Source: a bacterium
GTDB lineage: Bacteria; Patescibacteriota; Minisyncoccia; Phycocordibacterales; GWA1-40-21
Assembly (NCBI GenBank): GCA_037131755.1
Contig: JBAXQJ010000005.1
Coordinates: 1 to 49,736, forward strand
Direction: 5' to 3'
DNA length: 49,736 nt
The notes beneath the pieces were generated by a model, which worked only from the letters and a program-made list of their open reading frames with translations, made no database searches and was not told the DNA's origin. The position numbers and the translations under genes were made by a program. Shown here piece by piece: positions 3,695-45,552 of the stretch (positions are counted from its first letter, which is position 1; every line of letters starts with the position of its first letter).

Positions 3695-3721
3695 AAAGCA
3701 GCCAGAACTGGCTGCTTTTTA
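3693..3721 (+). terminator. Intrinsic terminator of cca
   Basis: aaaaagcagcc-agaact-ggctgcttttt starts at the cca stop codon. Confidence 0.75.
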
Positions 3722-3739
3722 TTTGACCTTTTCATTTTT

Positions 3740-12680: not shown

Positions 12681-12947
12681 ATGACCACACTTAGCATTAG
12701 AATAGACGATAAGATAAAAAGAGACGTTCAAAAGCTGTATAAAAGCCTCGGTTTAGATATGTCTTCTGCTACCAAAATGTTTTACAGTCAATCTTTAATT
12801 TGTAAAGGCATACCTTTTCAACCACTAACTTCAAACGGTTATACTGTAGAAGCCGAGAAAAGAATTCTTAAACAATCTATAGATATAAAGAAAAAAGGCA
12901 AGACTTTCAATAATGTTGAAGATCTTTTTAAGTATCTAAACAAATAA
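12681..12947 (+). CDS. dinJ: RelB/DinJ-family antitoxin
   Basis: 88 aa. The N-terminus LSIRIDDKIKRDVQKLYKSLGLDMSSATKMF fits the DinJ/RelB RHH pattern. A YafQ-like gene follows directly. Confidence 0.8.
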   Translation: MTTLSIRIDDKIKRDVQKLYKSLGLDMSSATKMFYSQSLICKGIPFQPLTSNGYTVEAEKRILKQSIDIKKKGKTFNNVEDLFKYLNK

Positions 12948-12951
12948 GGAC

Positions 12952-13230
12952 ATGCTTAAACCAAATATCCTCAAGTCTTACAAGAAGGATTTTAAGCGCT
13001 TAAAAAATTCAGGGAAATTCAAGGAGGAAAAACTGATAGGAGTCATCACCGTCCTCCTAAAACAAGAGAAATTAGCTGAAAAACACAAGGATCACCAATT
13101 AAATGGCGTGCTTTCACATTTACGTGAATGTCACATAGAAAGTGACTTGTTATTAATCTATCAAACAGATGAAGAGAACGGTAAATTACATCTAGTAAAT
13201 ATCGGTAGTCATTCTGATTTGTTTGAGTAA
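12952..13230 (+). CDS. yafQ: YafQ-family mRNA interferase toxin
   Basis: 92 aa with KDHQLNG....LRECHIESDLLLIY......L.LVNIGSHSDLF, which matches the YafQ signature. Confidence 0.8.
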   Translation: MLKPNILKSYKKDFKRLKNSGKFKEEKLIGVITVLLKQEKLAEKHKDHQLNGVLSHLRECHIESDLLLIYQTDEENGKLHLVNIGSHSDLFE

Positions 13231-16268: not shown

Positions 16269-16308
16269 AAACTGGCTGAAATTTGCTCCGCAAATTTCAG
16301 CCAGTTTT
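16269..16308 (+). terminator. Intrinsic terminator of pnp
   Basis: 18-bp perfect stem aaactggctgaaatttgc-tcc-gcaaatttcagccagttt plus a T. It lies inside the 5-prime end of track ORF 16257-17555. Confidence 0.75.
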
Positions 16309-17555: not shown

Positions 17556-17561
17556 AAGTCA

Positions 17562-17660
17562 CTCGCCACCACCTTTTTAGAGCACGGATATTTTCTTGCT
17601 AGAAAATTCCTCGAGTTCGGCTCAGTCAGCCTCACTAGTCTCTAAAAAGGCGGTGGCTCG
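17562..17660 (+). repeat. Structured intergenic element, family TTTTTAGAGCACGGATATTTTCTTGCTAGAAAATTCCTCGAG (copy A)
   Basis: The core 17574-17648 is closed by TTTTTAGAG/CTCTAAAAA and extended by a locus-specific outer stem (ctcgccaccacc / ggcggtggctcg). It starts 7 nt after the upstream stop codon. Confidence 0.8.
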
Positions 17661-17718
17661 TTCCCACTACAATTCATCTGTTATTTTAATTTTTCATAGA
17701 TTGTGATATCCTTATATT

Positions 17719-19930: not shown

Positions 19931-19973
19931 AGATAAAAACGAATTCTTGCTTTGCAAGAATTCGTTTTTATCT
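19931..19973. terminator. 20-bp perfect hairpin
   Basis: agataaaaacgaattcttgc-ttt-gcaagaattcgtttttatct, between the convergent comM and M23 peptidase genes. Confidence 0.65.
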
Positions 19974-20010: not shown

Positions 20011-20056
20011 AATCCCTTCTAAAAAAACGCCGGCCGGCGTTTTTTTAGAAGGGATT
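20011..20056. terminator. 46-nt perfect palindrome overlapping the M23 peptidase stop codon
   Basis: aatcccttctaaaaaaacgccgg / ccggcgtttttttagaagggatt. The right arm encodes the last codons (KNPF-stop) of the minus-strand gene. Confidence 0.6.
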
Positions 20057-23517: not shown

Positions 23518-24330
23518 ATGGAAATTGAAGCTAAAAAATCGCTGGGACAAAATTTTCTGAAGTCCGAAGGGGCACTCCGAAAAATAGTTGAGGCGGGGGA
23601 AATCAAGGATACTGATACCGTGCTCGAAATCGGGCCTGGCCTTGGCGCGCTCACCGAGAAAATCCTAGAAAAAGCTGGCCGAGTGGTGGTGGTTGAAAAA
23701 GATGACAGACTGATAAGTATTCTAAATGAAAAATTCAGCACCGATGTTACCGGCGGGAAACTTCAAATCATACATGCGGATATCTTGAATTTTGACCCCT
23801 CAATCTACAATATCCAATCTACTAACTACAAATTAATTGCCAACATTCCTTATTACATCACTGGCGAGATTTTCCGAAAATTTCTAGAAAGTGACAATCA
23901 GCCGAGCCAGATGGTCGTCTTAGTGCAAAAAGAGGTGGCCATCAGGGTGGTGGCGAGAGATGGCAAGGAAAGTCTGCTTTCCAATTCGATCAAATGTTTT
24001 GGTACACCCAGACTAGTAGATACCGTGCCAGCGGGAGCGTTTGTGCCGGCGCCAAAAGTGGATTCGGCCATCCTTGCCATAAATAATATCTCGAAGAAGT
24101 TTTTTGAAGAAAACAAGATATCACCGGAAAAGTTTTTCACAATCCTGCACTACGGCTTTGCCCATAAAAGGAAAATGCTCCTGGGAAATCTAAAAGAAGC
24201 CTTTTTGAAAGAGGGAAGGAGTGGTGTGGAAAATCTGCGGCAGATTTTCCACACCGCCGGCCTGTCAGAAAAAGTCCGAGCCGAGGATTTAACACTAAAA
24301 AACTGGGCTGAGCTCGTAAAACAATTTTAA
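23518..24330 (+). CDS. rsmA: 16S rRNA (adenine1518/1519-N6)-dimethyltransferase
   Basis: KSLGQNFL, LEIGPGLGALT, NIPYYIT. The ATG at 23518 lies 7 nt after TGcTAGTAT. The upstream part of the track ORF overlaps pcrA out of frame. Confidence 0.9.
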   Translation: MEIEAKKSLGQNFLKSEGALRKIVEAGEIKDTDTVLEIGPGLGALTEKILEKAGRVVVVEKDDRLISILNEKFSTDVTGGKLQIIHADILNFDPSIYNIQSTNYKLIANIPYYITGEIFRKFLESDNQPSQMVVLVQKEVAIRVVARDGKESLLSNSIKCFGTPRLVDTVPAGAFVPAPKVDSAILAINNISKKFFEENKISPEKFFTILHYGFAHKRKMLLGNLKEAFLKEGRSGVENLRQIFHTAGLSEKVRAEDLTLKNWAELVKQF

Positions 24331-24342
24331 CCAACTTTAGGA

Positions 24343-24377
24343 CAGTAAAAAACAGCCTTGTGGGCTGTTTTTTACTG
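24343..24377. terminator. Bidirectional terminator
   Basis: cagtaaaaaacagcc-ttgtg-ggctgttttttactg between the convergent rsmA and LamG-protein genes. Confidence 0.75.
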
Positions 24378-27129: not shown

Positions 27130-27153
27130 TAGAACTTAGAACGTGGAACATAC

Positions 27154-27187
27154 AAAACCCCCGGTCGCTCACGCGACCGGGGGTTTT
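27154..27187 (-). terminator. Intrinsic terminator of LamG paralog 2
   Basis: aaaacccccggtcgc-tcac-gcgaccgggggtttt, a 15-bp perfect stem. Confidence 0.75.
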
Positions 27188-27218
27188 GTATGTTTGTTTT
27201 TTCTAAAATCTATTCCCG

Positions 27219-30247: not shown

Positions 30248-31291
30248 ATGTTTAAAAAATATCTCCCTTCAAAAAAATTTATTATTGTCTTATCGTCCTT
30301 GGTTGTTGCTTTGATACTTATTTTTAGTTTCCAAGCAGCCACCGACTATCTTAAAAACAAGTCGGCTGTTCCAAATAATAAAAACCTCGCGCTCCAGACT
30401 TCTTTTAAAGAATTTATGGCCATCGACACCGATAAGGACGGCCTGCCAGACTGGGAAGAAGCCCTTTGGAAAACCGATCCGAAAAATCCGGACACCGATG
30501 GCGATGGAACATCAGATGGGGAAGAGGTAAAAGCCGGCCGGGATCCATTAAAAGCCAATACCGCCAAGGCCGGGCAGGAACCGAATGATAAAATCGATCC
30601 GCAAAAAATCGCCGCGGAAAAGAAAACCGTCCAAGAATATATTGATTTGTCAGCGACCGATAAACTGGCAAGAAGTTTGTTTTCTCAATACATCGCCACC
30701 AAAAAAGTCGGTCAAACAATGACCGAGAGCGACAAACAATATATCGTTCAGAATTTTATCGACAACCTGCCAAATCTGACTTACAAGGAATACACCCTCG
30801 GTGACCTTACGGTTCTTGGTACAAACACCACGGCGGAAGTCAAAAATTACGCCAACCAGGTCGCAGAAATACTATACAATAACTATCAAACAAAAACCGA
30901 TGACGTCTACACCATCATGTCGACTTATTTCAGCTCCGAAGATGCCGCCGCTCCAACTGCGCCCTTGCAAAAAATCCAGCCCATTATCGATAAAAATCTT
31001 AAAACAATCGCCAGCTTACTGAAAGTATCCGTACCAAACGAGGCAAAAAACGGCCACCTCTTGCTTGTAAACAGTTTCTATAAAATCACCCAGAATTTGC
31101 TGATATTGAGAGACGCCTCAAAAGACATTATGCTAACCCTATCTTCTTTGGAAAATTATGATGCCAATGTCACCAATCTTTCTTCGATATTGGATAATCT
31201 GGCCAACTACATCCAATCAAAGAAAATAAGTTTCGCTGCCACCGATTTTGGTTACAAATTATTTTATGATATAATTAATGGCAACAATTAA
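30248..31291 (+). CDS. Membrane-anchored protein with thrombospondin-type-3-like Ca-binding repeats
   Basis: 347 aa with an N-terminal TM and DTDKDGLPDWEE...DPKNPDTDGDGTSDGEE, followed by a helical domain of unknown family. TGcTATAAT ends 7 nt before the ATG. Confidence 0.7.
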   Translation: MFKKYLPSKKFIIVLSSLVVALILIFSFQAATDYLKNKSAVPNNKNLALQTSFKEFMAIDTDKDGLPDWEEALWKTDPKNPDTDGDGTSDGEEVKAGRDPLKANTAKAGQEPNDKIDPQKIAAEKKTVQEYIDLSATDKLARSLFSQYIATKKVGQTMTESDKQYIVQNFIDNLPNLTYKEYTLGDLTVLGTNTTAEVKNYANQVAEILYNNYQTKTDDVYTIMSTYFSSEDAAAPTAPLQKIQPIIDKNLKTIASLLKVSVPNEAKNGHLLLVNSFYKITQNLLILRDASKDIMLTLSSLENYDANVTNLSSILDNLANYIQSKKISFAATDFGYKLFYDIINGNN

Positions 31292-32996
31292 AATGTTTTC
31301 TAAAAGAAAAATTCTTCAAAAAACCCTTGGCTGTCTCCTGATCATCGGCCTTCTGCCGACCACTTTTGCTTTTGGCCAAACAGCCTCTGCTCCAGTCAAC
31401 ACCGCTCTTCCAACCGGTGTTGGTTATCCGACTTACGATTTTGGAACTGTCCACAACACCTGGGTTCTCGCGGGAATTCTTTCTGGCCAGCAGCCGGGTC
31501 AGCAGCAGGACAAAATCAGAATGACTGTCCCAAAACTGATCTTAAAAAGAATCTTGCGCGAACTAACAAAATCAATCACCACTTGGATTGACAACGGCTT
31601 TGAGGGTAATCCATCATTCGTAACAGATCCAAAAAAGTGGATAACGAATACAGCCGATATCACCGTCGGTGACTTTTTGTTGAATGACCCATCCCTAAGT
31701 TTCCTTTGTGATCCTTTTAAAATCCAAGTTAAATTGGCCCTTGGTCTTCAATACCAACCATTCAAAGAACAGATCAAATGTAGTTTTTCTGGTGCCTTGA
31801 ATAACACCAATCAAGCCTATAATAATTTCGTCAACGGCGATTTTATCAACGGGGGAGGCTGGGACTCTTGGTTAAAACTAACCACCGTACCACAGAACAA
31901 TCAGATGGGAGCCTCGATATTAGCTCAAGGAGAATTGGATGCGAGAATTGCCAATAACCAAGCCGCCGCTCAGACAGAATCGAGCTGGGGTAATGGTTTT
32001 ATGTCCTACAAGGAATGCACCAGGAAAACGACCGATGCTAGCGGAAAGGTCATCAGTACCGACACTTACCACGGTGATCCCACCACTCATCCGGCCAACG
32101 TTCCGCCCACGACGTCTATTACTAGGAATTTTGACCAATCAAACAGCACTTACACCGGCGTGACGACCGAAACCTGCGAAATCGTAACTCCGGGCTTGCA
32201 GATATTCCAAAAGCTTGGTTGGGCTGATAGCAGCACGATCAGAGAATTGGAATTGGCTGATGACATCAATGCCATCTTCACCGCCCTGGGAAACCAGCTC
32301 TTGACTTTGGGCATGGAGTCGCTCACCGGTGCCAAGAAAACCAAGACCAATGACAATTCGTACAACCAGTACATGGATTATCTGACCCAACAACAAGCCC
32401 AGCTGTCCTCACAAGGTATGTCTTACGACCCGTCAAATTATGGCAGTAATTTTTACTCCAGTAGCAACTCCGGTTCGTCATATCTAAATTCCAACAATGG
32501 AAAGAGTCAGGCTTTGGCCGCGGTAGAACAACAGAGAAATATCGAGATTGCTTATCAACAGAAAGTAAACGACGTTTTGAATTTACTCAACCAAGCCCGA
32601 GCCTCTTTTGCCGCCAAAACCGGCTGTAACAGCCTGATCCAAGACGCCGTGATCAATCGAATCGATGGGGTAGCCAGCAATTCCGGCAATCAGCTGTCTT
32701 TAAACAAGGTTACTCTGACCCAAGTCCTGACGACAACCGCCGGTAATATCTCCAAACTTGATGATTTGAAGAGCAATATTACTTCCGCTTCGAGCGACAC
32801 GGATTTTTCTCAAGTGGCTTCCGGTATCAGTGATGATGCTTCCTATCACAGCTCGACGGACAAATCCTACGAAACCACCGGTTCAAATTATCTTTTGATA
32901 AAAAACTGGCTGTCAGTGGCAAAAGACAGTTACAATAAGGACAACACCGGCCGACCAAATATGTGTACCGCCGATCTCAGTATGTGGGGAATATAG
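31278..32996 (+). CDS. Secreted hypothetical protein (S/N/Q-rich)
   Basis: 572-aa ORF with a signal-like N-terminus (LGCLLIIGLLPTTFAFGQTASA). The ATG at 31293, just after the upstream stop, is an equally plausible start. No family recognised. Confidence 0.65.
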   Translation: MATIKMFSKRKILQKTLGCLLIIGLLPTTFAFGQTASAPVNTALPTGVGYPTYDFGTVHNTWVLAGILSGQQPGQQQDKIRMTVPKLILKRILRELTKSITTWIDNGFEGNPSFVTDPKKWITNTADITVGDFLLNDPSLSFLCDPFKIQVKLALGLQYQPFKEQIKCSFSGALNNTNQAYNNFVNGDFINGGGWDSWLKLTTVPQNNQMGASILAQGELDARIANNQAAAQTESSWGNGFMSYKECTRKTTDASGKVISTDTYHGDPTTHPANVPPTTSITRNFDQSNSTYTGVTTETCEIVTPGLQIFQKLGWADSSTIRELELADDINAIFTALGNQLLTLGMESLTGAKKTKTNDNSYNQYMDYLTQQQAQLSSQGMSYDPSNYGSNFYSSSNSGSSYLNSNNGKSQALAAVEQQRNIEIAYQQKVNDVLNLLNQARASFAAKTGCNSLIQDAVINRIDGVASNSGNQLSLNKVTLTQVLTTTAGNISKLDDLKSNITSASSDTDFSQVASGISDDASYHSSTDKSYETTGSNYLLIKNWLSVAKDSYNKDNTGRPNMCTADLSMWGI

Positions 32997-33069
32997 CAGG
33001 TGACGGAAAAGAAAAAAGTGGACAAAAAATTAGCACTTGAATCGTTTTTGCGGTAGAATATAAGTTGAA

Positions 33070-35268
33070 ATGAAAATTAAATTTTCAAAATTTTTCACCC
33101 TGCTGACTATTTCAATAGTAGTCTTTTTGGGGTTATCTTTCTCCCCATACAATAGTACCAGAGCGATAGCTGGATCTATTTCAGATTGTTCATCTTTGGG
33201 TGGTGACAAAATATACACTTGCCAAGCTTATTACAGAGAAGTTCAAGGTGGTGCAAACTACGCGACGATTAATTTTAACGACGGAACAAAAATTAATGTA
33301 TTTCCTGATGGCAGTTCCATAAAATTCGATAAAAACGGCAATACAATTTCAAACACCGCTGATGGTTCAACAATGATATACAACCCCAATACAGGGAAGA
33401 CAGTAATAAAAGATTCCACTGGTAACATAAGAACCGAACAACTCACTGCCTCCGCGCCGGTTGAAGATCCATTCTTTTCAAATTGGCTGAAAGAAGCTGG
33501 TAAAATGGGTGGTTTAATCACTGGTGCTGTGGCAAAAACAGTTGCCATGGTTGTGGGAGGATTCCTCCAATTGATTTGGATTCCAACACTTTCAGCTTTA
33601 ATATATGTTGCTAGTTTTCTTGTTGATAAATCAGTCGAGTTCACTCTTTCTATTGGTTCCTTGGCGGGTATTGATTCTTCTGTAAATATTGCCTGGGTAA
33701 CGATCAGGAACGTTTTCAACATTTTCTTTATTTTTGCACTTTTGTACGCAGCTATTAAGATTATAATCGGGCAGACAGACAACAATTCAAAGAATATGCT
33801 TAAGAATGTCATCGTGGCTGCTCTCCTTATAAATTTCAGCCTATTTTTCACAAAGATTATTATTGATGCTGGAAACATTGTTGCGGCGGCCCTATATAAT
33901 TCACTAACCAACCAAGGAACTGTTGGTTTAGGATCATTATTAATGAAGGGTATGGGTATATCAGGACTATGGGGAGCAAGTGAAGCAAGTGTTGGCGGTG
34001 TTTTTAGCACATCATTCTTTATTATTTCCGCCGTACAAGCGACCACCCTACTTATAACTCTCGCCACCTTCATTTATATCGCTATATTATTTATTGTACG
34101 AACGGTTGGCCTAATATTTTTAATGGCCTTTTCACCAGTAGGTTTTATGGGTGATGTCTTGCCATTTATGGCTCCATATCAAAAAATGTGGCGCGACAAT
34201 TTATTTGGCCTAGTAGCAACTGCTCCAATCTTTTTACTTTTTACACAAATAATCGTGACGGTCTCTTCGCAAATGAAAGCGGCGATGGAAACTATGTCTA
34301 AAGAATCTGATGTGGCATACATTGCCTATTTTAAATATGCGATGGTAATAATATTACTAATTACCGCAGTTAAAGTCACCAAAAAATTCTCTGGCGCTGT
34401 TGGTTCATTTGTAGATGGCATAACCAAACTCGCCGTAGGCACAGCCGCTGGTGTTGCGACCGGGGGAGCGGCTTTGGCAATGAGAAAAGTAGTTGGTGGC
34501 AGTGCAGCAAAAATGGCCTCAAATGAAGATCTCAAAGCTCGAGCGGCAGCTGGTAGTATATCAGCCAGAATGCAGTTGGCAGCAGCAACTAAAGTATCAA
34601 AATCAAGCTTTGATGTTCGAAATGCCAATATTGCTGGCTTCAAACCAGGAGAGATGATCAGTAAACAAACCGGCTTTGATCTGAATGGTGGTCCGAAATT
34701 CACCCAGGTCGCCGACGGCGGTTATGCTGGGGCCCAAGATCGAGCCAAGAAAGCTCAGGCGGCAAGGATCAAAACTACCACAAACACCGATAGTGCAAAA
34801 GTTGATCCTTGGTCAGTAGATCAGAACCGTGTTGATAGTCATATAGCACAATTGAGACAAGATGCTCAAAATGACTTGGTAAATCATCAAACCGACAGAT
34901 CTCACAAGGAACAAGAATTTAATGACCCAAGAAAAACCAAAGACGAGAAAGACAAGATTGCCCAGGAAATTGCCGAATTAGACAAGAAGATTGCCAAAGC
35001 TCAACGCACAGCAAACTCAGCCAATGATCCGATTGCAACAGCCGAGCTCGAAGAACAGGCAAGAAAAAGTATTTCCAAGCAGGACTCAATAGACAAGGCA
35101 AAACAAAAAGAAAGAGAATTACTTAGTGGTGCACCATCCGAAGCCCACAAACAAGCAGCTGCGGCTTATAGGGCCTATGCAGCAGAACAGGAGAAGACAA
35201 AAACCACTGCGGATAAGACAAATGATCTTCTCCAACAACTTATTCAACAGAACCAACCTAAGCCATAA
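33070..35268 (+). CDS. TrbL/VirB6-like polytopic membrane protein with long charged C-terminal tail
   Basis: 732 aa with a signal/TM, a soluble domain of about 130 aa, at least 6 hydrophobic helices and a K/E/Q/A-rich tail of about 250 aa. The assignment rests on topology and on T4SS gene context. Confidence 0.6.
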   Translation: MKIKFSKFFTLLTISIVVFLGLSFSPYNSTRAIAGSISDCSSLGGDKIYTCQAYYREVQGGANYATINFNDGTKINVFPDGSSIKFDKNGNTISNTADGSTMIYNPNTGKTVIKDSTGNIRTEQLTASAPVEDPFFSNWLKEAGKMGGLITGAVAKTVAMVVGGFLQLIWIPTLSALIYVASFLVDKSVEFTLSIGSLAGIDSSVNIAWVTIRNVFNIFFIFALLYAAIKIIIGQTDNNSKNMLKNVIVAALLINFSLFFTKIIIDAGNIVAAALYNSLTNQGTVGLGSLLMKGMGISGLWGASEASVGGVFSTSFFIISAVQATTLLITLATFIYIAILFIVRTVGLIFLMAFSPVGFMGDVLPFMAPYQKMWRDNLFGLVATAPIFLLFTQIIVTVSSQMKAAMETMSKESDVAYIAYFKYAMVIILLITAVKVTKKFSGAVGSFVDGITKLAVGTAAGVATGGAALAMRKVVGGSAAKMASNEDLKARAAAGSISARMQLAAATKVSKSSFDVRNANIAGFKPGEMISKQTGFDLNGGPKFTQVADGGYAGAQDRAKKAQAARIKTTTNTDSAKVDPWSVDQNRVDSHIAQLRQDAQNDLVNHQTDRSHKEQEFNDPRKTKDEKDKIAQEIAELDKKIAKAQRTANSANDPIATAELEEQARKSISKQDSIDKAKQKERELLSGAPSEAHKQAAAAYRAYAAEQEKTKTTADKTNDLLQQLIQQNQPKP

Positions 35269-35276
35269 TTAAGTAA

Positions 35277-35978
35277 ATGGATGACCAATTTAAAAAAATA
35301 ATAGGGGAACAACTGATAAAAATTCCAGCTGACATAAAAGCGGCTATTGTTTCCATTGATTACAAAACAAAACTTCAGGAAATCACCAGACGACAGAAAC
35401 TTCTGATTGATCAAGCTGGCAGGCTGGAGACCGAGACAACTTTGGTGCTGCTTGGTCTAGAAAAACTTGGTGATTATGTCTCAAACCTTCAAAACGAACT
35501 CGGACTACCGATAATGCGGGCCAAAGAAGTATCTTTGGATGTCAGTGAAAACATCTTCAAACCGATTCGAGAATCATTGAGGCAGATGAATGAAGGTCTT
35601 AATGAAGAGGGTGGGGCACCAGCGACTGGCGTACCGGAAGAAGTTGCCTCCAGCCCGGAACGTAATAAAATTCTTAGCGAGATAGAAAATCCAAACACAA
35701 TTGGCCAAAACGGTTCGATGATGTTTACAAAAAATCCGACTCCAGCAACAGTAAACCCTGTACTAGTGGAAAAAAGTTCACCAATCATTCCAACGACTCC
35801 AAAAGAAAGCCTCTCAACTACAACAACAAAATCAGCCGGTGATTTGCTAGACGCCAAACTCAAAGATACCTTAATGATACCGAGAAACATTGTTGAGAAA
35901 AACGAAATCAGCAAGCTGCCGCCAGTCAACCGACCGCCATACAAAGGTTCGGATCCATACAAGGAACCAACGATCTAG
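35277..35978 (+). CDS. Hypothetical protein (no TM), T4SS-cluster associated
   Basis: 233-aa ORF in the same operon-like array. No family recognised. Confidence 0.55.
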   Translation: MDDQFKKIIGEQLIKIPADIKAAIVSIDYKTKLQEITRRQKLLIDQAGRLETETTLVLLGLEKLGDYVSNLQNELGLPIMRAKEVSLDVSENIFKPIRESLRQMNEGLNEEGGAPATGVPEEVASSPERNKILSEIENPNTIGQNGSMMFTKNPTPATVNPVLVEKSSPIIPTTPKESLSTTTTKSAGDLLDAKLKDTLMIPRNIVEKNEISKLPPVNRPPYKGSDPYKEPTI

Positions 35979-35999
35979 CCAGATTACTGAAAACAAAAC

Positions 36000-36419
36000 A
36001 TGAGATTTCAAGTCCCACAATTCATCGAAATAGAAGATAAGATTTTCGGACCACTGACAATCAAGCAGTTCATCTACTTGGCTGGTGGCGGCGGTTTGGC
36101 GTTCATCATCTTCCGCTTTTTGCCGCTAATGATAGCTATCCCTTTGATTATTGTCGCTATCGGCTTTTCCTTGCTCATGGCCTTCTATACCGTCAACAAC
36201 AAGCCTTTTATCGGTGTTGTTCAATCGGCAGTCACATATTTTTTCTCCAACAAGCTTTATCTTTGGAAAAAACAAGACCGAAAACCGATTTCCAAAACAG
36301 AACCAACCAACACAGAAAAAGCGGGCGGTCAGCTTTTCATTCCGAAATTATCCGATAGTAAGCTAAAGGACATCACCTGGAGCCTCGATATCAACGAAAC
36401 AGTGGGAGGGAAAGAGTAG
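36000..36419 (+). CDS. PrgI-family (VirB3-like) small membrane protein
   Basis: 139 aa. MRFQVPQFIEIEDKIFGPLTIKQFIYLAGGG is followed by two TM helices, which is the PrgI-family pattern. It sits upstream of VirB4, as in Gram-positive T4SS loci. Confidence 0.65.
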   Translation: MRFQVPQFIEIEDKIFGPLTIKQFIYLAGGGGLAFIIFRFLPLMIAIPLIIVAIGFSLLMAFYTVNNKPFIGVVQSAVTYFFSNKLYLWKKQDRKPISKTEPTNTEKAGGQLFIPKLSDSKLKDITWSLDINETVGGKE

Positions 36420-36493
36420 GGAGAAGTAGCTTCTTATGTTCATATAAAGTATAATAATAAGGAAACGAGAAGGAATTTTAATTTTTAATCTAC

Positions 36494-37132
36494 ATGGTAG
36501 TTGCCAAAGCCACCCAAGAATTTGTCCCGATCAAAGAAGTCCGGGATGGAATAGTCATCATGAAAGACGGCTCCATGCGAGCGGTAATCGCCGTATCGTC
36601 TTTAAACTTTGCCTTGAAATCAAACGATGAGAGGGAAGCCCTGATTTACCAATTCCAAAATTTCCTAAACTCCCTGGATTTTTCGGTTCAAATTTCCATC
36701 CAATCGCGTGCCTTGGATATCCGCCCTTATCTGGCCACTTTGGAAAAGCAATACAACGCCCAAATCAATGACTTGCTGAAAATACAGATCCGCGAGTATA
36801 TTTCTTTCGTCCGCAGCTTCACTGAGGAGGTGAATATCATGAGAAAAAGTTTCTATGTCGTCATTCCCTTTACCCCAACACTCCTAAATACCAAAAAGGA
36901 AGGGGGCTTGCTGTCATCGCTCGGTTTTGGGGCAAAAAACAAAACTAAAACGTCTGAAACAGACAGTTTCAATGAAAGCCGAACCCAGCTCGAACAGCGT
37001 CTAGGTGTTGTCCAGCAAGGTCTGCTCAGTTGTGGTCTCCGAAGCGCCCAATTAGGCACCGAAGAAATCGTCGAAGTCTTTTATAAGTTATTCAATCCGG
37101 GCAGCACGGAAAAGCCGATGCAGTTTCAATAA
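36494..37132 (+). CDS. Possible detached N-terminal module of VirB4-type ATPase
   Basis: 212 aa with EFVPIKEVRDGIVIMKDGSMRAVIAVSSLNFALKS.DERE. From memory, this pattern occurs at the N termini of long Gram-positive VirB4/PrgJ-type proteins. The ORF is separated from the ATPase ORF by 130 nt and a frame change. Confidence 0.45.
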   Translation: MVVAKATQEFVPIKEVRDGIVIMKDGSMRAVIAVSSLNFALKSNDEREALIYQFQNFLNSLDFSVQISIQSRALDIRPYLATLEKQYNAQINDLLKIQIREYISFVRSFTEEVNIMRKSFYVVIPFTPTLLNTKKEGGLLSSLGFGAKNKTKTSETDSFNESRTQLEQRLGVVQQGLLSCGLRSAQLGTEEIVEVFYKLFNPGSTEKPMQFQ

Positions 37133-37151
37133 AAACTCCGGTTGGCCGTCT

Positions 37152-37228
37152 TTGCGAGGAAGTGGCTGACGAAGCAAACCAGTAATTATAAAGATGGATT
37201 GCTTCGGGATTACCCTCGCAATGACAAA
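37152..37228 (+). repeat. REP-like nested hairpin, family GGATTGC-N-GCAATGACAAA
   Basis: TTGCGAGG...GAAGCAAACC-loop-GGATTGCTTC...CCTCGCAA-TGACAAAAC forms two nested inverted repeats. It lies between the 212-aa ORF and the VirB4 ATPase ORF. Confidence 0.65.
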
Positions 37229-37262
37229 ACAAAAGAACTGAAAGACTAAATATAAAAATACC

Positions 37263-39080
37263 ATGGGAATATTTGATTTTTTAAACAAAAAAAGCTCGAA
37301 AAAGGATGAACTAACCTCATTCTTGCCTCAAGAAATCTACGAGGCTGGCGTTTTGGAGTTGCAGGATGTGATCGCACCTTCAGCGCTCAAGATCAGCCCC
37401 AACCAAATCAATCTTGGCGAAAAGATCGCCCGAACTTTCTTTATCATTTCCTATCCGCGCTTTTTGACCGAAAGCTGGTTTGCACCAATCATCAACTTGG
37501 ACAAAGTTTTCAACGTCTCAATCTTCATTCACCCGATCGAAACGTCAAAGATCCTGCGCCAATTCCAAAAGAAAGTGGCCGAGGTGCAAAGCCAGATCAA
37601 CCAGCGGGAAAATAGGGGATTGGTGCGTGATCCGGTCTTGGATACCGCCTATCAAGACCTTGAGAGTTTGCGTGATAGTCTTCAGCAGGCGCAGGAGAAA
37701 CTTTTTGACGCTGGAATTTATCTAACCATTTATGGCGACAATGAAGACGATTTGAACAAGGTAGAGACGGAGATGAAAACCATTTTGGAATCCAAACTCG
37801 TCTATATCAAACCGGCTCTTTTCCAACAAGAACAAGGCTATAAGAGCATCCTGCCGACCTGCGATGACCAGCTTTTGGTTCACTCAAAATTAAATTCTTC
37901 GCCGCTTTCCAGCATTTTCCCATTTATTTCTTTCGACCTCACCCAAGAAAAAGGTATTCTCTATGGTATCAACCGACACAACAACAGCTTGGTTTTGTTT
38001 GATCGTTTTTCCCAAGATAACTACAATTCCGTCACCTTTGCCAAGGCTGGTTCCGGTAAATCCTACGCGGCCAAGCTGGAAATATTGAGAACCTTGATGT
38101 TTGATGTCGATGTGATCGTGATCGACCCGGAAAATGAATTCCACTATCTCGCCGAGGCTGTTGGTGGAAAAGTATTTAACATTTCCTTGAACTCGGAGAG
38201 TCATATCAATCCATTTGAACTGCCGCACCCACGCGAAGACGAGGCACCATCAGATGTTTTGCGTTCCAACATCATCAACTTGGTGGGAATGTTCCGAATC
38301 ATGTTTGGTGGTCTCACTCCAGAGGAGGATGCGATCATCGATCGAGCGATCACCGAGACTTATGCTTTGAAAGATATTACCCCAGAATCTGATTTTGTGA
38401 ATTTGGAGCCACCGCTTTTGTCGGACTTTGAATTGGTCTTATCTGGAATGGAAGGGGCGGAGAGTCTGGCGCAAAAACTGTCAAAATTCACCCGCGGTTC
38501 CTGGTCTGGCTTTATCAATCGTCCATCAACCGTCGACATCGACGCCAAGTTCGTCGTGTTCTCGATCCGTGATATGGAAGATGAACTTCGTGCTGTCGCG
38601 ATGTATATCATCACGCACTTCATCTGGACAGCGATCAGAAAAGTAAAGAAGAAGCGATTATTGGTGGTGGATGAAGCGTGGGTGATGATGCGTTCTGACG
38701 ATGCCGCTTCTTTCCTTTTTGGTATTGCTAAACGCTGTCGTAAATACTGGCTGGGTCTCGCGACTATTACCCAAGACGTCGACGACTTTTTGAATTCACC
38801 TTATGGTATGCCGATTGTGACCAACTCATCGATCCAAATCCTGCTCAAACAATCGCCATCAACAGTGGAACACCTGAAAGAAGTTTTCAACCTGACCGAG
38901 GACGAGAAATTCCTGTTATTGGAGTCAGATGTGGGTGAGGGACTATTCTTTGTCGGCCAGAAACATGTGGCAATCAAGATCAAAGCTTCATATACTGAGG
39001 ATCAAATCATCACTTCCGACCCATCACAGCTCTTGGCAATTCAGCGCTCAAGAGAAGAACTACAGGCAAGTCAGAACTAG
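37263..39080 (+). CDS. VirB4/TraE-type T4SS ATPase
   Basis: 605 aa with Walker A AKAGSGKSYAAK, Walker B RLLVVDEAW, and the N-terminal pattern IAPSALKISPNQINLGEKIARTFFIISYPRFL, typical of the family. Confidence 0.85.
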   Translation: MGIFDFLNKKSSKKDELTSFLPQEIYEAGVLELQDVIAPSALKISPNQINLGEKIARTFFIISYPRFLTESWFAPIINLDKVFNVSIFIHPIETSKILRQFQKKVAEVQSQINQRENRGLVRDPVLDTAYQDLESLRDSLQQAQEKLFDAGIYLTIYGDNEDDLNKVETEMKTILESKLVYIKPALFQQEQGYKSILPTCDDQLLVHSKLNSSPLSSIFPFISFDLTQEKGILYGINRHNNSLVLFDRFSQDNYNSVTFAKAGSGKSYAAKLEILRTLMFDVDVIVIDPENEFHYLAEAVGGKVFNISLNSESHINPFELPHPREDEAPSDVLRSNIINLVGMFRIMFGGLTPEEDAIIDRAITETYALKDITPESDFVNLEPPLLSDFELVLSGMEGAESLAQKLSKFTRGSWSGFINRPSTVDIDAKFVVFSIRDMEDELRAVAMYIITHFIWTAIRKVKKKRLLVVDEAWVMMRSDDAASFLFGIAKRCRKYWLGLATITQDVDDFLNSPYGMPIVTNSSIQILLKQSPSTVEHLKEVFNLTEDEKFLLLESDVGEGLFFVGQKHVAIKIKASYTEDQIITSDPSQLLAIQRSREELQASQN

Positions 39081-39092
39081 CTTTTTTGTCAT

Positions 39093-39201
39093 ACCTACCC
39101 CCAATTACCTTTTTAGAGCACGGATATTTTCTTACTAGAAAATTCCTCGAGTTCGGCTCAGTCAGCCTCACTAGTCTCTAAAAAGGCAATTAGGGGTAGG
39201 T
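39093..39201 (+). repeat. Structured intergenic element (copy B)
   Basis: The core 39110-39184 is nearly identical to copy A. The outer stem acctacccccaattacc / ggcaattaggggtaggt is locus-specific and is followed by TTTTT. It starts 13 nt after the VirB4 stop. Confidence 0.8.
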
Positions 39202-39253
39202 TTTTGAGTTCTATGTTTAACGTTTTATTTCTATATGCTATAATATTTGCAGT

Positions 39254-40270
39254 ATGAAAAAAACATTTTTCTTCTCATTTTTATTTACCCTACTGATCAT
39301 TGGGGTGTTACCGGCCCTTTCTTCGGCTCAAACGACAAACACTGCCACGCCAAACTTAAACGACCAATTTTTACAAATTTCCCTCTCGCCAGACAATCCG
39401 GAACCGGGTCAAAATTATTCGGCCACAATTTCCAGTTATGTTTTTGACCTAGACCGCTCTACCATCAGGTGGTATGTGAACGGCCAACTTAAAAAAGAGG
39501 GTAGCGGCTTGAAGGTTTTTTATGATCAGGCGGGCAAGAGCGGGGTGGCAACCGTCATTAGGGCAGTGGCAACAACCCAAGACAACCAGACATCGGAGAT
39601 AAGCGCGACGATTGTTCCAGCTAGCGTTGATTTGATTTACGAGGCCTACTCATACGTCCCACCCTTTTATAAAGGCAAAGCCTTGAATGTAAACCAAGGT
39701 TCGGTCATTTTAGCTGCCATTCCGAATATTATGCAAAACGGAACGAAAATTGCCGCTCAAAAACTGGTTTATACCTGGAAAAAAGACGGCACTGTCCAAG
39801 GGTCTTTTTCCGGGGTCGGGAAGAACACCTTCAGCTTCAACGGTTCCGTTCCGATTCGTGATGTGGAAATAGAAGTGTCTGTTTCCTCGCCGGACAATTC
39901 CGTGACCGCCAGCAAATCCCTGACCGTGCCTTTTGTCTCGCCTAAAATACTTTTCTATGAAGATAGCCCCGTCTATGGGACAATGTTCAACCGTGCCATC
40001 ACCCAGACCGTCGGCCTATTGACTGATGAATTTTCCGTCAAGGCTTTTCCATATTTTTTCAGCGCCGGTTTTCCTCAAAGCTCAAATTTGATTTACAATT
40101 GGACGATGAATGGGCAGGGGATTGAGACCCCCGCTGTACCAAACCTCGTCACCTTCCGCCAAGATACGCCCGGTGCCGGCAATGCGAATGTAGGCCTAAA
40201 AATCAGCAACACTGCCAGAATTTTCCAATTTGTTGAAAATAACTTTAGTATCCTATTCCAAAAACAATAA
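39254..40270 (+). CDS. Secreted beta-rich hypothetical protein
   Basis: 338 aa with signal peptide MKKTFFFSFLFTLLIIGVLPALSSA. TGcTATAAT ends 9 nt before the ATG. No family recognised. Confidence 0.65.
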   Translation: MKKTFFFSFLFTLLIIGVLPALSSAQTTNTATPNLNDQFLQISLSPDNPEPGQNYSATISSYVFDLDRSTIRWYVNGQLKKEGSGLKVFYDQAGKSGVATVIRAVATTQDNQTSEISATIVPASVDLIYEAYSYVPPFYKGKALNVNQGSVILAAIPNIMQNGTKIAAQKLVYTWKKDGTVQGSFSGVGKNTFSFNGSVPIRDVEIEVSVSSPDNSVTASKSLTVPFVSPKILFYEDSPVYGTMFNRAITQTVGLLTDEFSVKAFPYFFSAGFPQSSNLIYNWTMNGQGIETPAVPNLVTFRQDTPGAGNANVGLKISNTARIFQFVENNFSILFQKQ

Positions 40271-40271
40271 T

Positions 40272-40655
40272 ATGAAAAAATTACTAACCGTCAAAATCTT
40301 ATCCTTAATAATACTCAGTGTTGTCTTTATTCTGCCTCAATTCACCGTCTTGGCTTTGAATTATGTTCCTCTCGAAAAAAACGCCTTCCCGGGAGTTACC
40401 TTCAATGAAGGAACCAAACTAAACACCTTTCTCTCCCAATCTTTCCAGTTTGGCCTGGCTTTGGCCGCTATTTTGGCTGTGGTGATGATCATTTGGGGTG
40501 GGGTGGAGACAATGCTGTCTGAATCGGTCTTTTCCAAAGACTCCGGCAAGACAAAAATTAAAGATGCTTTGTATGGCTTAGGTCTGGCCTTGGTTTCTTG
40601 GCTTATTCTTTACACCATCAATCCGGAAATACTTAATTTTAAGCTTACCCAATAA
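40272..40655 (+). CDS. TrbC/VirB2-like T4SS pilin candidate
   Basis: Trimmed to the Met at 40272 (MKKLLTVKILSLIILS...). It has a signal peptide plus two hydrophobic helices separated by a short polar loop, and is 127 aa. Confidence 0.6.
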   Translation: MKKLLTVKILSLIILSVVFILPQFTVLALNYVPLEKNAFPGVTFNEGTKLNTFLSQSFQFGLALAAILAVVMIIWGGVETMLSESVFSKDSGKTKIKDALYGLGLALVSWLILYTINPEILNFKLTQ

Positions 40656-40656
40656 T

Positions 40657-41895
40657 ATGAGCAAAAAAAACGCCATTCTTTTGATCCTTACCGTCTTCAT
40701 TGGTTTTTTGGCCGCTCTGATTTGGTTTTATTTTAATGCCAATACCCCCTCGGCCAACACAAATACGATTGTCACGACCGGTGACGTCTACGACCCGTTT
40801 GGACTAGGGAACAGAGGTGGGAGCACCAGCCCAGCCACCACTACTTCCGAACAGCCGGTAGTCAATACTCCCGTCACCCAACCTCTTCTCCGAAAAATAT
40901 CCAGCGATCCGGTCTCTGGTTCCATTATTTTTAACAGCAACGCTCGAACCGACATCCGTTATATCCTGCGAGCCAATGGCAACATCTATGAAACCTATAC
41001 CGACTCAACCGAATCAAAAAGAATTTCCAACACCACCATTCCCAAAGTCTATGAGAGCAACTGGCTGCCAAATGGCCAGAATTTGATCATCCGCTATCTC
41101 AAAGATGTCGCCGATGTTATTCAGAGTTTTTCAGTGGAAATAAAAATCGCCACTACTACCGGTAATGAATTTGAGGGGGGGGTCGATGGCATGTTCCTGC
41201 CAGAAAATATTTCACAACTGGCCATCAACCCGCTTGGTGACAAAGTTTTCTATCTGATTTCTGATTTGAACGGCTCTTCCGGCTACATTACCAAAACCAA
41301 TGGTTCCAACAAAAAACTGCTGTTCCAATCGCCGCTTATCGAATGGCAGGTCAGCTGGCCGAAAGAAGACTACATCACTTTCACCACCAAGCCTTCGGCC
41401 AAGACAATCGGTTATATGTACTTCTTAAATACCAAAACTGGCAGTTTTGACCGGGTTATCGGTGACATCGCCGGTCTCACCACCAACACCAATCCAACCG
41501 CCACCAAAATACTTTACTCGGACAGTTCGGCTGGTCTGCCAAAAATTTATCTTTACGATGTGAAGAAAGCTGAAAGCAAGATGCTGCCATGGAATACCTT
41601 GCCAGAGAAATGCGCCTGGGACAAAAACGACGACAAAAATATTTACTGTGCCGTACCAAACCAATTTGGAGAAGGGGACTATCCTGACGCCTGGTATCAA
41701 GGTTTGGTCAGTTTCACTGATTCGATTTGGAAATATGATCAGACGACCGGCGCAACAACTCAGGTTGCCAACCTTAAAAATCTAGCTAACTTGAACATCG
41801 ACGCAACTGACCTTAAAATATCCGGCGCCGGAGACTATATGACCTTTGTCAATAAAACCGATTTGAGTTTTTGGGGACTGAAAATCACACCTTAG
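40657..41895 (+). CDS. N-terminally anchored protein with beta-propeller-like C-terminal region
   Basis: 412 aa with one N-terminal TM, a T/P-rich linker and repeated beta-strand-rich segments. The family is not recognised, and the TolB-like fold is only a guess. Confidence 0.55.
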   Translation: MSKKNAILLILTVFIGFLAALIWFYFNANTPSANTNTIVTTGDVYDPFGLGNRGGSTSPATTTSEQPVVNTPVTQPLLRKISSDPVSGSIIFNSNARTDIRYILRANGNIYETYTDSTESKRISNTTIPKVYESNWLPNGQNLIIRYLKDVADVIQSFSVEIKIATTTGNEFEGGVDGMFLPENISQLAINPLGDKVFYLISDLNGSSGYITKTNGSNKKLLFQSPLIEWQVSWPKEDYITFTTKPSAKTIGYMYFLNTKTGSFDRVIGDIAGLTTNTNPTATKILYSDSSAGLPKIYLYDVKKAESKMLPWNTLPEKCAWDKNDDKNIYCAVPNQFGEGDYPDAWYQGLVSFTDSIWKYDQTTGATTQVANLKNLANLNIDATDLKISGAGDYMTFVNKTDLSFWGLKITP

Positions 41896-41915: not shown

Positions 41916-41950
41916 AAAGACAGGTTTCGGTTTGGCCGAAACCTGTCTTT
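41916..41950 (+). terminator. Intrinsic terminator ending the T4SS-like cluster
   Basis: aaagacaggtttcgg-tttgg-ccgaaacctgtcttt followed by attt. Confidence 0.7.
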
Positions 41951-41961
41951 ATTTTAATCTA

Positions 41962-42069
41962 CTGCCCCCTCAATTACTTTTTTAGAGACTAGCGAGCGCG
42001 ACGGCGCGAGCTCGAGGAATTTTCTAGCAAGAAAATATCCGTGCTCTAAAAAGGTAATTGAGGGGGCAG
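41962..42069 (-). repeat. Structured intergenic element (copy C, inverted orientation)
   Basis: The same core in reverse orientation. The outer stem ctgccccctcaattac / gtaattgagggggcag is perfect. The internal second hairpin is replaced by a different GC hairpin (GCGC-N4-GCGC instead of GGCT-N5-AGCC). It lies 25 nt downstream of the jag stop, in the sense orientation. Confidence 0.8.
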
Positions 42070-42093
42070 GTATCCAAATACTACCCCTTAAGT

Positions 42094-43394: not shown

Positions 43395-43494
43395 TTTTAA
43401 GAGCACGGATATTTTCTTGCCTGCCTCACCGACTCATCAAGGCGGGCTAGAAAATTCCTCTATCATTCCCGCGCAGGCGGGAATGACGGCTAGT
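43395..43494 (+). repeat. Structured intergenic element (copy D, divergent; antisense to the rnpA-yidC operon)
   Basis: TTTTAAGAGCACGGATATTTTCTTGC...CTAGAAAATTCCTC is retained. Hairpin 1 is extended by GCCTGCC/GGCGGGC, and hairpin 2 is replaced by CATTCCCGC-GCAG-GCGGGAATG. The 3-prime CTAG overlaps the rnpA stop codon. Confidence 0.7.
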
Positions 43495-44046: not shown

Positions 44047-44211
44047 AATGAGGGAGTGTAACTGATTTTTAGATGAAAGTCAAATTAAAGAAACTGGTTT
44101 GAGTTGTTTTTAAAAACAAAACGAGTCCACAAGTTATCCCCAAGTTTTAAACATAATTTTGTTTTGTTAACAAGTATCACATACTATAATTCGGTATATA
44201 ATATTAAAATT

Positions 44212-45552
44212 ATGTTTGATACAAAAACTCTTTGGAATAATGTCCTGGCGGAAATGGAACTATCGATGTCCAAGGCTAATTTTAGCATGTGGTTTAAAGA
44301 CACCCTCATCACCAAAATAGACACCGATGGAACGGTTTATGTTGGGGTGCCAAATGTCTTTGTTAAGGATTGGCTTATAAATAAATTCCACAAAAACATC
44401 CTTAAGAGCCTTCGTAATTTCGGCGAGAACATCCGTTCCGTGGAATATGTGGTCGTGAAAAACGAAACCATAAAGGAGGCGCAGAAGAATACCAACATCC
44501 ATCACAACGAGCTCCCGCTTCATGATTTTTATATCAACAAAGACGACAACTTGAATCCAAAATATGTTTTTGAAACTTTTGTGGTCGGTCCCTTCAACGA
44601 GCTAGCGCATGCCGCTTCACAGGCGATTATCAAGCGTACGGCGGTTTACAATCCTTTCTTTGTTTACGGCAATACCGGTCACGGCAAGACCCACCTGATC
44701 CAGGCGATAGGGAACCACACCAAAACGGCCGATCCGAGCAAGAAAATATTTTATCTGACTTCCGAAAGGTTTGCGGTGGATCTTTTGAATTCCATTCAAA
44801 ATGGAACGATGAATAATTTCAAGGATAAATACCGCAAGTACGACCTCTTGATCATTGACGACATACAGTTTCTGGCAGGCAAACAAAAAATGATGGAGGA
44901 ATTTTTCCATCTTTTCAATAATTTTTACGACAACAACAAGCAGATTATCTTCTCTTCCGATAAACACCCGAATTTTATTCCCGGTCTGGAAGATCGTTTG
45001 AAATCAAGGCTTAATTCAGGCATGATCGTCGAAATTCCTTGCCCCGACCTCGAATCACGCATGCAGATTTTCAAGATCAAGTCTTCAATGATGAATTTTT
45101 CCTTGTCACCGGAAACAATCGAATATCTAGCCTCGTCAGTCGAGGGCAACATCAGGGAAATTGAAGGTATCTTAAACGCGATCATCTGCCAGTCCCAGCT
45201 TAGAAACAGGGACTTAACGATCAATGAAATAAAGGATTTGATTAAGAACAACATCAAACCCAAGAAAAATGCCTCGATCAAGGAAGTAATCAAAACCATT
45301 GCTGAATTTTACGGCGTCTCCGAGCAAGAAGTTTATGAGAAGAACCGCAAAAAAGAGGTGGTCAAGCCAAGACAAATCATTATGTATGTTCTCCGTGAAG
45401 ATTTTGACGTGTCCTATCCGACGATCGGCGAGAAACTTGGAGGAAAAGACCACACCACCGTCATGCACTCTTACGAAAAGATAAAAGAGGATATCAAAAA
45501 AGACCCGTCGCTAGCCCGAGAAGTAAACCAGATCCGTTCAATGTTCACCTAA
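44212..45552 (+). CDS. dnaA: Chromosomal replication initiator protein DnaA
   Basis: Trimmed to MFDTKTLWNNV... It has Walker A GNTGHGKTHL, LLIIDDIQFL, and the C-terminal DNA-binding motif YPTIGEKLGGKDHTTVMHSYEKI. Confidence 0.95.
   Translation: MFDTKTLWNNVLAEMELSMSKANFSMWFKDTLITKIDTDGTVYVGVPNVFVKDWLINKFHKNILKSLRNFGENIRSVEYVVVKNETIKEAQKNTNIHHNELPLHDFYINKDDNLNPKYVFETFVVGPFNELAHAASQAIIKRTAVYNPFFVYGNTGHGKTHLIQAIGNHTKTADPSKKIFYLTSERFAVDLLNSIQNGTMNNFKDKYRKYDLLIIDDIQFLAGKQKMMEEFFHLFNNFYDNNKQIIFSSDKHPNFIPGLEDRLKSRLNSGMIVEIPCPDLESRMQIFKIKSSMMNFSLSPETIEYLASSVEGNIREIEGILNAIICQSQLRNRDLTINEIKDLIKNNIKPKKNASIKEVIKTIAEFYGVSEQEVYEKNRKKEVVKPRQIIMYVLREDFDVSYPTIGEKLGGKDHTTVMHSYEKIKEDIKKDPSLAREVNQIRSMFT

Follow-up and report, generated by a model that had tools for sequence, protein, structure and literature searches.

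The dispersed hairpin described here is probably a small, non-autonomous mobile DNA element, a member of a family that is specific to the CPR/Patescibacteria and moves via a folded single strand. These bacteria have tiny genomes that are thought to contain little mobile DNA, and to our knowledge no repeat family of this kind has been described for them. The family is not previously described; in a 2024 review of prokaryotic MITEs, the CPR/Patescibacteria phylum goes unmentioned.

The stretch of DNA that was analysed as a whole (49,736 nt; referred to as the window) contains three full copies, A, B, and C, as well as a truncated copy, D. The initial annotation had listed four copies, and all of them were located where it had placed them: a 33-mer core has three matches with at most one mismatch (0 expected), and the 19-mer AGAGCACGGATATTTTCTT has four exact matches (0.01 expected), both far above chance. 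In the following, F denotes the strand used in that annotation (GCACGG...) and R its complement. Copy A (17565-17657, minus strand; 99.5 bits with our covariance model) consists of a 17-bp stem, P1, with the arms 17565-17581 and 17641-17657, enclosing the head at 17582-17640 and flanked by CACTC (17560-17564) and TCGTT (17658-17662). The whole hairpin of copy B spans positions 39093-39201 on the minus strand (97.9 bits on that strand). Its 25-bp arms (39093-39117 and 39177-39201) contain two A.C mismatches on the plus strand, which are G.U pairs on the minus strand, and its head (39118-39176, minus strand) is a 59-nt three-way junction with hairpin H1 at 39122-39146 and hairpin H2 at 39150-39172. 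It lies 13 nt past the stop codon of a virB4-like gene and is directly followed by TTTTT; as already noted from the sequence, B alone among the window copies is followed by a T-run. Copy C (41962-42069, plus strand; arms 41962-41986 and 42045-42069, head 41987-42044; 104.4 bits) has its structural R strand on the plus strand of the window. In copies A, B, and D it is the minus strand of the window that constitutes R, and it runs antisense to the flanking genes. Copy D (43395-43458, minus strand) is located between the rnpA stop and the yidC start and had rightly been recognized as incomplete with a variant left arm: it scores 21.6 bits, matches model positions 42-70 only, and retains the left arm variant TTTTAAGA and an H1 with a 26-nt GC-rich loop insert, lacking H2 and the right arm. 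The same H1-loop insert is present in an intact element of a related contig (L116). Folding of copies A, B, and C gave z-scores between -6.8 and -10.3 and, in each case, a stem leading into a three-way junction that carries two hairpins; the outer helices described for them initially were seen in this folding.

Alignment of 78 copies revealed a sharply bounded head of 58-59 nt, the F-strand consensus of which is GCACGGAU-AUUUUCU-UGCU-AGAAAAU-UCC-UCG-WGC-UC-NNNN-loop-NNNN-UC-GCW-AGKC. The head is a three-way junction of H1 and H2, seated directly on a locus-specific stem that begins at the base adjoining it (95% Watson-Crick pairing at distance 1). The stem of H1 is rich in A/U, contains a bulged A, and carries the loop AGCA; in H2, 3 bp are followed by a tandem G.A loop, another 4 bp, and finally the loop GAC(U)G. 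The 9-bp closing stem TTTTTAGAG/CTCTAAAAA, which had been regarded as part of the shared structure, is present in this genome, but the family alignment limits its sequence (TTTTTAGAG) to the genome of the window, and the family-wide unit is the head, GCACGG...AGKC. Likewise, the proposed exchange of the second hairpin holds for GGCT/AGCC in A and B and GCGC/GCGC in C, but the 9-bp hairpin of D (43464-43485) is not homologous to H2.

The initial annotation had claimed covariation and suggested that it be examined statistically. In an alignment of 58 sequences that was fitted to the covariance model, 93% of the cells were paired, compared to 66% in shuffles, and the covariation score was 0.627, compared to 0.176 in shuffles (none of 500 reached 0.627) and 0.07-0.12 with slid partners; double changes occurred in all five helices and in H1 at 10 of 10 pairs. 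In the H1 stem, UUUUCU/AGAAAA is replaced by UUUCCU/AGGAAA, UUUUUU/AAAAAA, or AAAUCC/GGAUUU, while the loop AGCA and the bulged A remain constant. The search that gathered the 90 loci required an exact match in H1, which makes H1 look more conserved than it is. The covariance model, which was built from the copy alignment, picked up ~28 additional copies of diverged sequence among the fetched loci; these lay outside the exact H1 selection and therefore reveal the real variation of H1. Thus, H1 and H2 display genuine evolutionary covariation, whereas the outer stem, for which covariation had also been claimed, is not a single homologous helix that evolved by compensatory changes. A second head subtype, ...GGAG-N4-GACGG-N4-GAG-GUGGGGUCG-H1-GUGACC, carries the extra segment GUGGGGUCG between H2 and H1 (L081 7723-7806, L040 6532-6617, L080 6199-6280, L020 4103-4160, L062 5643-5722, L027 4551-4634, and L007 1392-1464), which shows that the exact-core search understates the breadth of the family. 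We also observed a GC-rich mini-hairpin (CCTGCCTCRCCG...GGCGGG / ...GGCAGG) inside H1 or H2 loops in different genomes, namely in the H1 loop of copy D (43421-43446), in L116 (~10100-10125), and in H2 of L032 and L077. It may be a second, smaller nested repeat.

A genome-wide collection of copies had been suggested as well, and pattern and covariance-model searches uncovered a CPR-wide family. A 25-base core pattern, run against a single genome of each species, returned the exact core in 90 genome stretches, all but one of them from MAGs labelled CPR/Patescibacteria or just "bacterium". The labelled CPR hosts were Saccharibacteria, Paceibacterota, Zambryskibacteria, Wildermuthbacteria, and Taylorbacteria. 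The lone exception, a 1.76-kb contig labelled Flavobacterium sp. (L025; CAZSZH010000134.1), is identical to the virB4 end plus copy B of the window and stops inside the head; given this identity, it is probably a mis-binned CPR contig. Six more contigs (L026, L031, L050, L086, L089, and L091) have an end within the element, indicating that the repeat breaks metagenome assemblies, and it can cause mis-binning as in L025. The core had no match in viral contigs or in phage or plasmid collections, and a carrier phage or plasmid was therefore rejected. The initial statement that the family was not recognizable agrees with our searches: Rfam 15 returned only three tRNAs for the whole window at the gathering threshold and only microRNA noise far below threshold for copy B ±150 nt at E≤10, so that a known RNA or ribozyme (hammerhead, twister, pistol, hatchet, HDV-like, 6S, Y RNA) found no match, and no literature match of the core sequence was found. 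By eye, the conserved bases of the junction do not fit the hammerhead core (CUGANGA/GAAA) or group II domain V. An integron attC site, a retron, or a DGR were likewise rejected, as there were no R-box motifs and no integrase or reverse transcriptase among the neighbours.

We then considered the genomic placement of the copies. Placement in sense orientation just after a stop codon, as claimed for copies A-C, applies to these three, but is only a weak tendency across 95 copies. Many copies start ~10-40 nt past a stop codon, and the upstream gene is co-oriented with the F strand in 63 of 91 cases; by context, 27 copies are sense and 13 antisense in unidirectional spacers, 22 lie between convergent and 10 between divergent genes, and ~20 are found inside ORFs. 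The neighbours are unrelated housekeeping genes, and no protein family was enriched in the 8-kb neighbourhoods of the copies. Five tightly flanked intergenic copies separate complete, unrelated genes. The ~20 of 95 intragenic copies are in frame within long ORFs such as UvrB, Fmt, and Dus, and are read in one of two frames, ...CTDIFLLENSSCSAQSASQG... on F or ...RARRRSYEEFSSKKISV... on R. Delimited against uninterrupted orthologues, the inserts comprise about 38-52 residues: UvrB carries inserts of 52 and 42 aa at two different sites, and Dus an insert of ~38-40 aa at a single site that is filled in one orientation in L004, in the other in L080, and empty in a third genome. An intron splitting genes was rejected, since the flanking ORFs are whole and the intragenic copies are all in frame and stop-free. 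We additionally noticed adjacent element pairs of opposite orientation within one spacer, usually one canonical head and one of a diverged subtype, which recalls BIME-like clustering (L038 4873-5088, L011 6324-6587, L015 5127-5369, L023 2579-2783, and L040 6532-6867).

The two strands of the element are not equivalent. Among stem mismatches, 65 A.C and 18 G.U were counted on the F strand, corresponding to 65 G.U and 18 A.C on the R strand. When stems alone were folded, with the head replaced by a tetraloop, the R strand was better for 64 of 79 copies, with a mean difference of 4.3 kcal/mol (p=4.5e-9). This advantage is independent of the direction of neighbouring genes. The head itself possesses a near-invariant G.U pair and tandem G.A loops on the R strand only. 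The structured strand is thus the opposite of the sense orientation assumed initially. A replication or transcription mutation bias of the GC-skew type was rejected as the cause: the asymmetry does not flip with gene direction, and F is the G-rich strand of its locus in 51 cases versus 32, so that such a bias would predict the opposite pattern. We take the asymmetry as selection for R-strand folding, most simply as single-stranded DNA. No R-sense sigma-70-like promoter was found at copies A and B, which favours DNA over RNA as the folded form.

These data also bear on the structured 3'-UTR module that had been offered as one reading of the element. In this reading, the copies would be host-beneficial structured RNAs, serving as protein-binding or processing signals at mRNA 3' ends and maintained in many copies by selection on each of them. 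Strong conservation of the head across CPR classes, its true covariation, and the frequent start shortly after a stop codon are as expected for such an RNA. In addition, the orthologous copies in Fmt (L034, L070) have identical H1 and junction, while the flanking gene has diverged by ~25% at the protein level. Such identical heads in diverging orthologues are the main weakness of a purely selfish reading: they call for repeated head replacement or gene conversion, as between L014 and L021, or for a constraint at the host level, and selection by the host on each copy could account for them. Nevertheless, we regard a host RNA as improbable: the copies occur in both orientations, in spacers of divergent genes, and in two frames inside ORFs, and in unidirectional contexts the strand that folds better mostly runs antisense to the upstream gene. 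Moreover, copies A and B showed no R-sense promoter, a near-identical strain does without copy C, and a sister species lacks B, C, and D (see below).

The stem below the head is locus-specific in sequence and ranges from ~17 to >40 bp, and the length distribution of P1 has a sharp peak at 16-17 bp (22 of 81 copies). The F-strand sequence at the foot of the stem is YTC on the left side and YY on the right. The R-strand flanks are purine-rich (e.g., AGCGA...GAGCGA) and can pair through tandem G.A in a GCGA...GAGC motif as in H2. Within one genome, heads identical at 58 of 58 positions share only 0-11 nt of stem. In the organism of the window, the identical block comprises 79 nt, i.e. the head plus the inner 10 bp, beyond which each locus has a 7-bp box of its own; in another genome, all copies sit on unrelated stems of 27-47 bp. 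L014 and L021 have the same flanks and a different H2. Identical heads on unrelated stems, together with this pair, indicate that head and stem have separate histories. Conversely, one genome has a unit of ~122 nt, stems included, that is identical in three different genes. A flanking 5-mer repeat was present in 19 of 84 copies compared to 8.4 ± 2.5 in controls, mostly as one motif, TCGCT/CGCTC. On the R strand this is the same GCGA...GAGC motif as in H2, and the repeats more likely represent a structural tandem-G.A helix on that strand than target-site duplications.

Copy C is polymorphic. A strain (L097/L106) that is 99.95% identical to the window over 11.4 kb lacks 118 nt at this position (41971-42088, plus strand), bounded by CCCCT at 41966-41970 and 42084-42088; this 5-nt direct repeat is duplicated at the indel. 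On the plus strand, the filled allele reads native ...AATCTACTGCCCCCT / CAATTAC-head-GTAATTG AGGGGGCAG GTATCCAAATACTA CCCCT / TAAGT..., with the slashes marking the borders of the segment. The native flank CTGCCCCCT (41962-41970, plus strand), which is present in the empty allele, provides the outermost 9 bp of the 5' arm of copy C, and AGGGGGCAG (42061-42069, plus strand), located inside the insert, is its exact reverse complement and forms the outer 3' arm. Since one outer arm of C is native flank, the "covariation" of the outer stems arises locally. The complementary arm could result from snap-back synthesis, from selection of a target site able to pair with it, or from later palindrome correction. 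It is followed by 14 extra inserted bases, GTATCCAAATACTA (42070-42083, plus strand), containing a small cap hairpin, GTAT-CCAA-ATAC. Taken as a circle, the 118-nt insert forms a fully paired rod of -50.6 kcal/mol on R and -43.2 kcal/mol on F (shuffles, -20.5 ± 3.8). The empty allele has no hairpin, and copy C therefore did not land in the loop of an existing terminator, an idea that was drawn from the many headless 15-23 bp hairpins of the window and a plain terminator at the B site of a sister species. For C such an insertion is ruled out; for copy B it is possible.

This sister species, in which the neighbouring protein is 66% identical, shares the order T4SS-jag-yidC-rnpA-dnaA. Its B, C, and D sites are all empty of the element, with a plain 16-bp terminator occupying the B site. 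We conclude that B, C, and D were gained in the lineage of the window and that the empty C allele is most simply ancestral, although the difference at copy C could also be due to a slipped deletion between the CCCCT repeats in L106. It is the one presence/absence polymorphism found in total: the A, D, L115, and L116 loci were invariant among the available strains. The polymorphism, the copy-free sister species, and the in-frame genic copies bear out the second reading offered initially, a hairpin-forming mobile element. Target-site duplications and an associated transposase had been named as features to look for. As to the former, the CCCCT repeat at C may be such a duplication, and the 5-mers flanking other copies, mostly TCGCT/CGCTC, are more likely structural. 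With respect to the latter, no transposase, reverse transcriptase, or HUH genes were seen in the 8-kb neighbourhoods of copies or in the window. The window does encode a RelB/YafQ toxin-antitoxin (12681-13230), a XerC/D-type tyrosine recombinase (8013-9002), and a UPF0102 protein (YraN-type nuclease; 412-873); none of them is linked to an element copy.

In the mobile element that we favour, the 58-59-nt head would be the signal required in cis, defined by its structure and presumably recognized by a trans-acting enzyme through its shape and conserved unpaired bases. The stem below it (P1, mostly 17 bp) would need only to pair, and each insertion would rebuild its outer part from the local flank or match it to that flank. 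The active form would be the R strand, most likely single-stranded DNA folded as a hairpin or closed dumbbell. Copies would survive where little harm is done, that is, in short spacers past stop codons and at in-frame ORF sites, with ~38-52 residues added. A more specific version of this scheme is conceivable, albeit unlikely: a covalently closed single-stranded rod or dumbbell of ~118 nt, consisting of DNA or possibly RNA and recognized by its head, might integrate where an arm pairs with the target, so that the native flank would become part of the new stem. The junction expected for such a circle or dumbbell of copy C is ...GTATCCAAATACTACCCCT joined to CAATTAC.... If this target-templated mechanism is true, it would be a new kind of transposition, undescribed for bacterial repeats, and the head a portable, structure-defined transposition signal shared by the superphylum.

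The second arm could also be explained by a SINE-like retroelement, in which an F-sense read-through RNA would be reverse transcribed at a nicked target and snap-back of the R-sense cDNA would make the arm from the flank. The co-orientation of F with the upstream gene in 63 of 91 copies together with selection for folding on R, the exact complementarity of the inserted AGGGGGCAG to the native CTGCCCCCT at copy C, and the long perfect stems that are mutually unrelated within one genome agree with this scheme. Still, we think it doubtful, because no reverse transcriptase is encoded near the copies or in the window and snap-back alone leaves the 14 extra bases at C unexplained. In addition, a UvrB copy (L053) has both outer arms within the insert, and a whole hairpin with its stems moved unchanged into three genes of one genome.

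Considerably less credible is a chromosomal DNA-structure site, in which a cruciform or hairpin would serve as the binding site of a protein of replication, segregation, repair, or DNA uptake. CPR bacteria rely on DNA uptake, and T4SS and competence genes are close by; H1 is a perfect 7-4-7 palindrome in duplex DNA, and the folding asymmetry tracks the element rather than the direction of transcription. But the covariation of H1 and H2 keeps pairing and not sequence, which argues for a folded single strand instead of a duplex operator, and copies lie within coding regions and are gained or lost between near-identical strains. Finally, ordinary long-stem intrinsic terminators sharing a loop sequence by chance, an idea encouraged by the T-run after copy B and the abundance of headless perfect 15-23 bp intergenic hairpins in the window, are refuted for all practical purposes by the rarity of T-runs of at least four after the stem (4 of 81 copies on F, 7 of 81 on R), the conservation of the 58-nt head across CPR classes, the copies inside ORFs, and the hairpin-free empty allele of C; as the initial annotation had it, this is not a plain terminator.

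The element resembles several known systems without matching any of them. It behaves like Rickettsia palindromic elements (RPEs), whose behaviour is summarized in PMC10969869, in its in-frame insertion in genes. Both are palindromic repeats of ~100-150 bp in reduced-genome, host-dependent bacteria, both are dispersed between genes and are often found in frame in unrelated housekeeping genes without destroying them, and neither has a linked transposase. UvrB, Fmt, Dus, and other genes are correspondingly read through in two fixed frames. The comparison is one of behaviour: RPE families are conserved in sequence along the element and occur in Rickettsia only, whereas in the CPR-wide element the apical 58-nt head alone is conserved and covaries, on a stem that differs at each locus. 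Like MITEs and REP/BIME sequences (Correia, ERIC, REP with RAYT), the element is small, non-coding, hairpin-forming, multi-copy, mostly extragenic, and assembly-breaking, and the CCCCT direct repeat at copy C resembles a target-site duplication. However, MITEs keep their terminal inverted repeats and vary inside, and the CPR element is the inverse, with a conserved centre and free ends: identical heads within one genome share only 0-11 nt of flanking stem. A related autonomous IS, a parent IS, or a RAYT-like gene was not seen in the 8-kb neighbourhoods, nor was an autonomous IS present in the window, and no GTAG/CGTC REP tag was visible in the aligned flanks. REP/BIME units are extragenic palindromes of 20-40 nt with a tag, spread by RAYT, compared to a unit of 90-120 nt here, with ~20 of 95 copies intragenic.

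IS200/IS605-type elements, which transpose as single strands and have miniature derivatives, carry two separate subterminal hairpins and are mobilized by the Y1 HUH transposase TnpA. They share with the CPR element strand-specific folding, seen here as the preference for R in 64 of 79 copies, and hairpins instead of terminal inverted repeats as the recognition feature. Further likenesses are a short motif at the left flank and right end (AGCGA...GAGCGA on R in one subfamily, CCCCT...CCCCT at copy C) and the folding of the copy C insert as a closed single-stranded circle. They differ in that the CPR element is one long stem topped by a three-way junction, that the junction at copy C lies inside an arm and not at a fixed end, and that no Y1 (TnpA) gene was found in the 8-kb neighbourhoods or the 50-kb window. 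The ITR of parvoviruses (AAV) is a T-shaped DNA hairpin recognized by the HUH Rep protein. As a structural analogy only, it likewise has a long stem capped by two small hairpins, forming a three-way junction, GAGC-type repeats beside the stem, and both orientations of the cap relative to the flanks (flip/flop; compare Dus in L004 and L080). The CPR element, in contrast, is chromosomal and bacterial, lacks a Rep gene as well as a linear genome end, and shows no similarity in sequence.

The conservation of a structure-defined head from Saccharibacteria to Paceibacterota points to a shared nucleic-acid-handling enzyme, and the head provides a handle to search for it by phylogenetic profiling as well as an easy marker for CPR DNA. 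Essential proteins gain 40-50 residues through the element, inserts that annotation pipelines will misread.

Some features of the window deserve mention in their own right. Its spacers contain long perfect headless hairpins with stems of 15-23 bp and loops of 3-5 nt, often flanked by A-runs and T-runs (20015-20052, 27153-27188, 1858-1894, 41916-41950, 16271-16305, 24223-24255, 19935-19969, 3691-3722, and 24343-24377), which appear to be the normal, often bidirectional, terminators of this organism. Headless hairpins of similar style occur in the sister species (L111 8462-8506 and 11251-11286). A type IV secretion-like cluster at 30248-41895 (PrgI-like, TraC-like, VirB4/TraG P-loop ATPase, T4SS pilin, and several proteins without a Pfam family) adjoins jag-yidC-rnpA-dnaA and is syntenic in a species that is only 66% identical. 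Judging from the GC-skew minimum, the replication origin lies at ~44-46 kb of the window. Compared to window positions 44104-45552, dnaA in L096/L101 (ERZ4223250) is called as two pieces of 136 and 247 aa instead of 446-482 aa, which is likely due to a frameshift or an assembly error.
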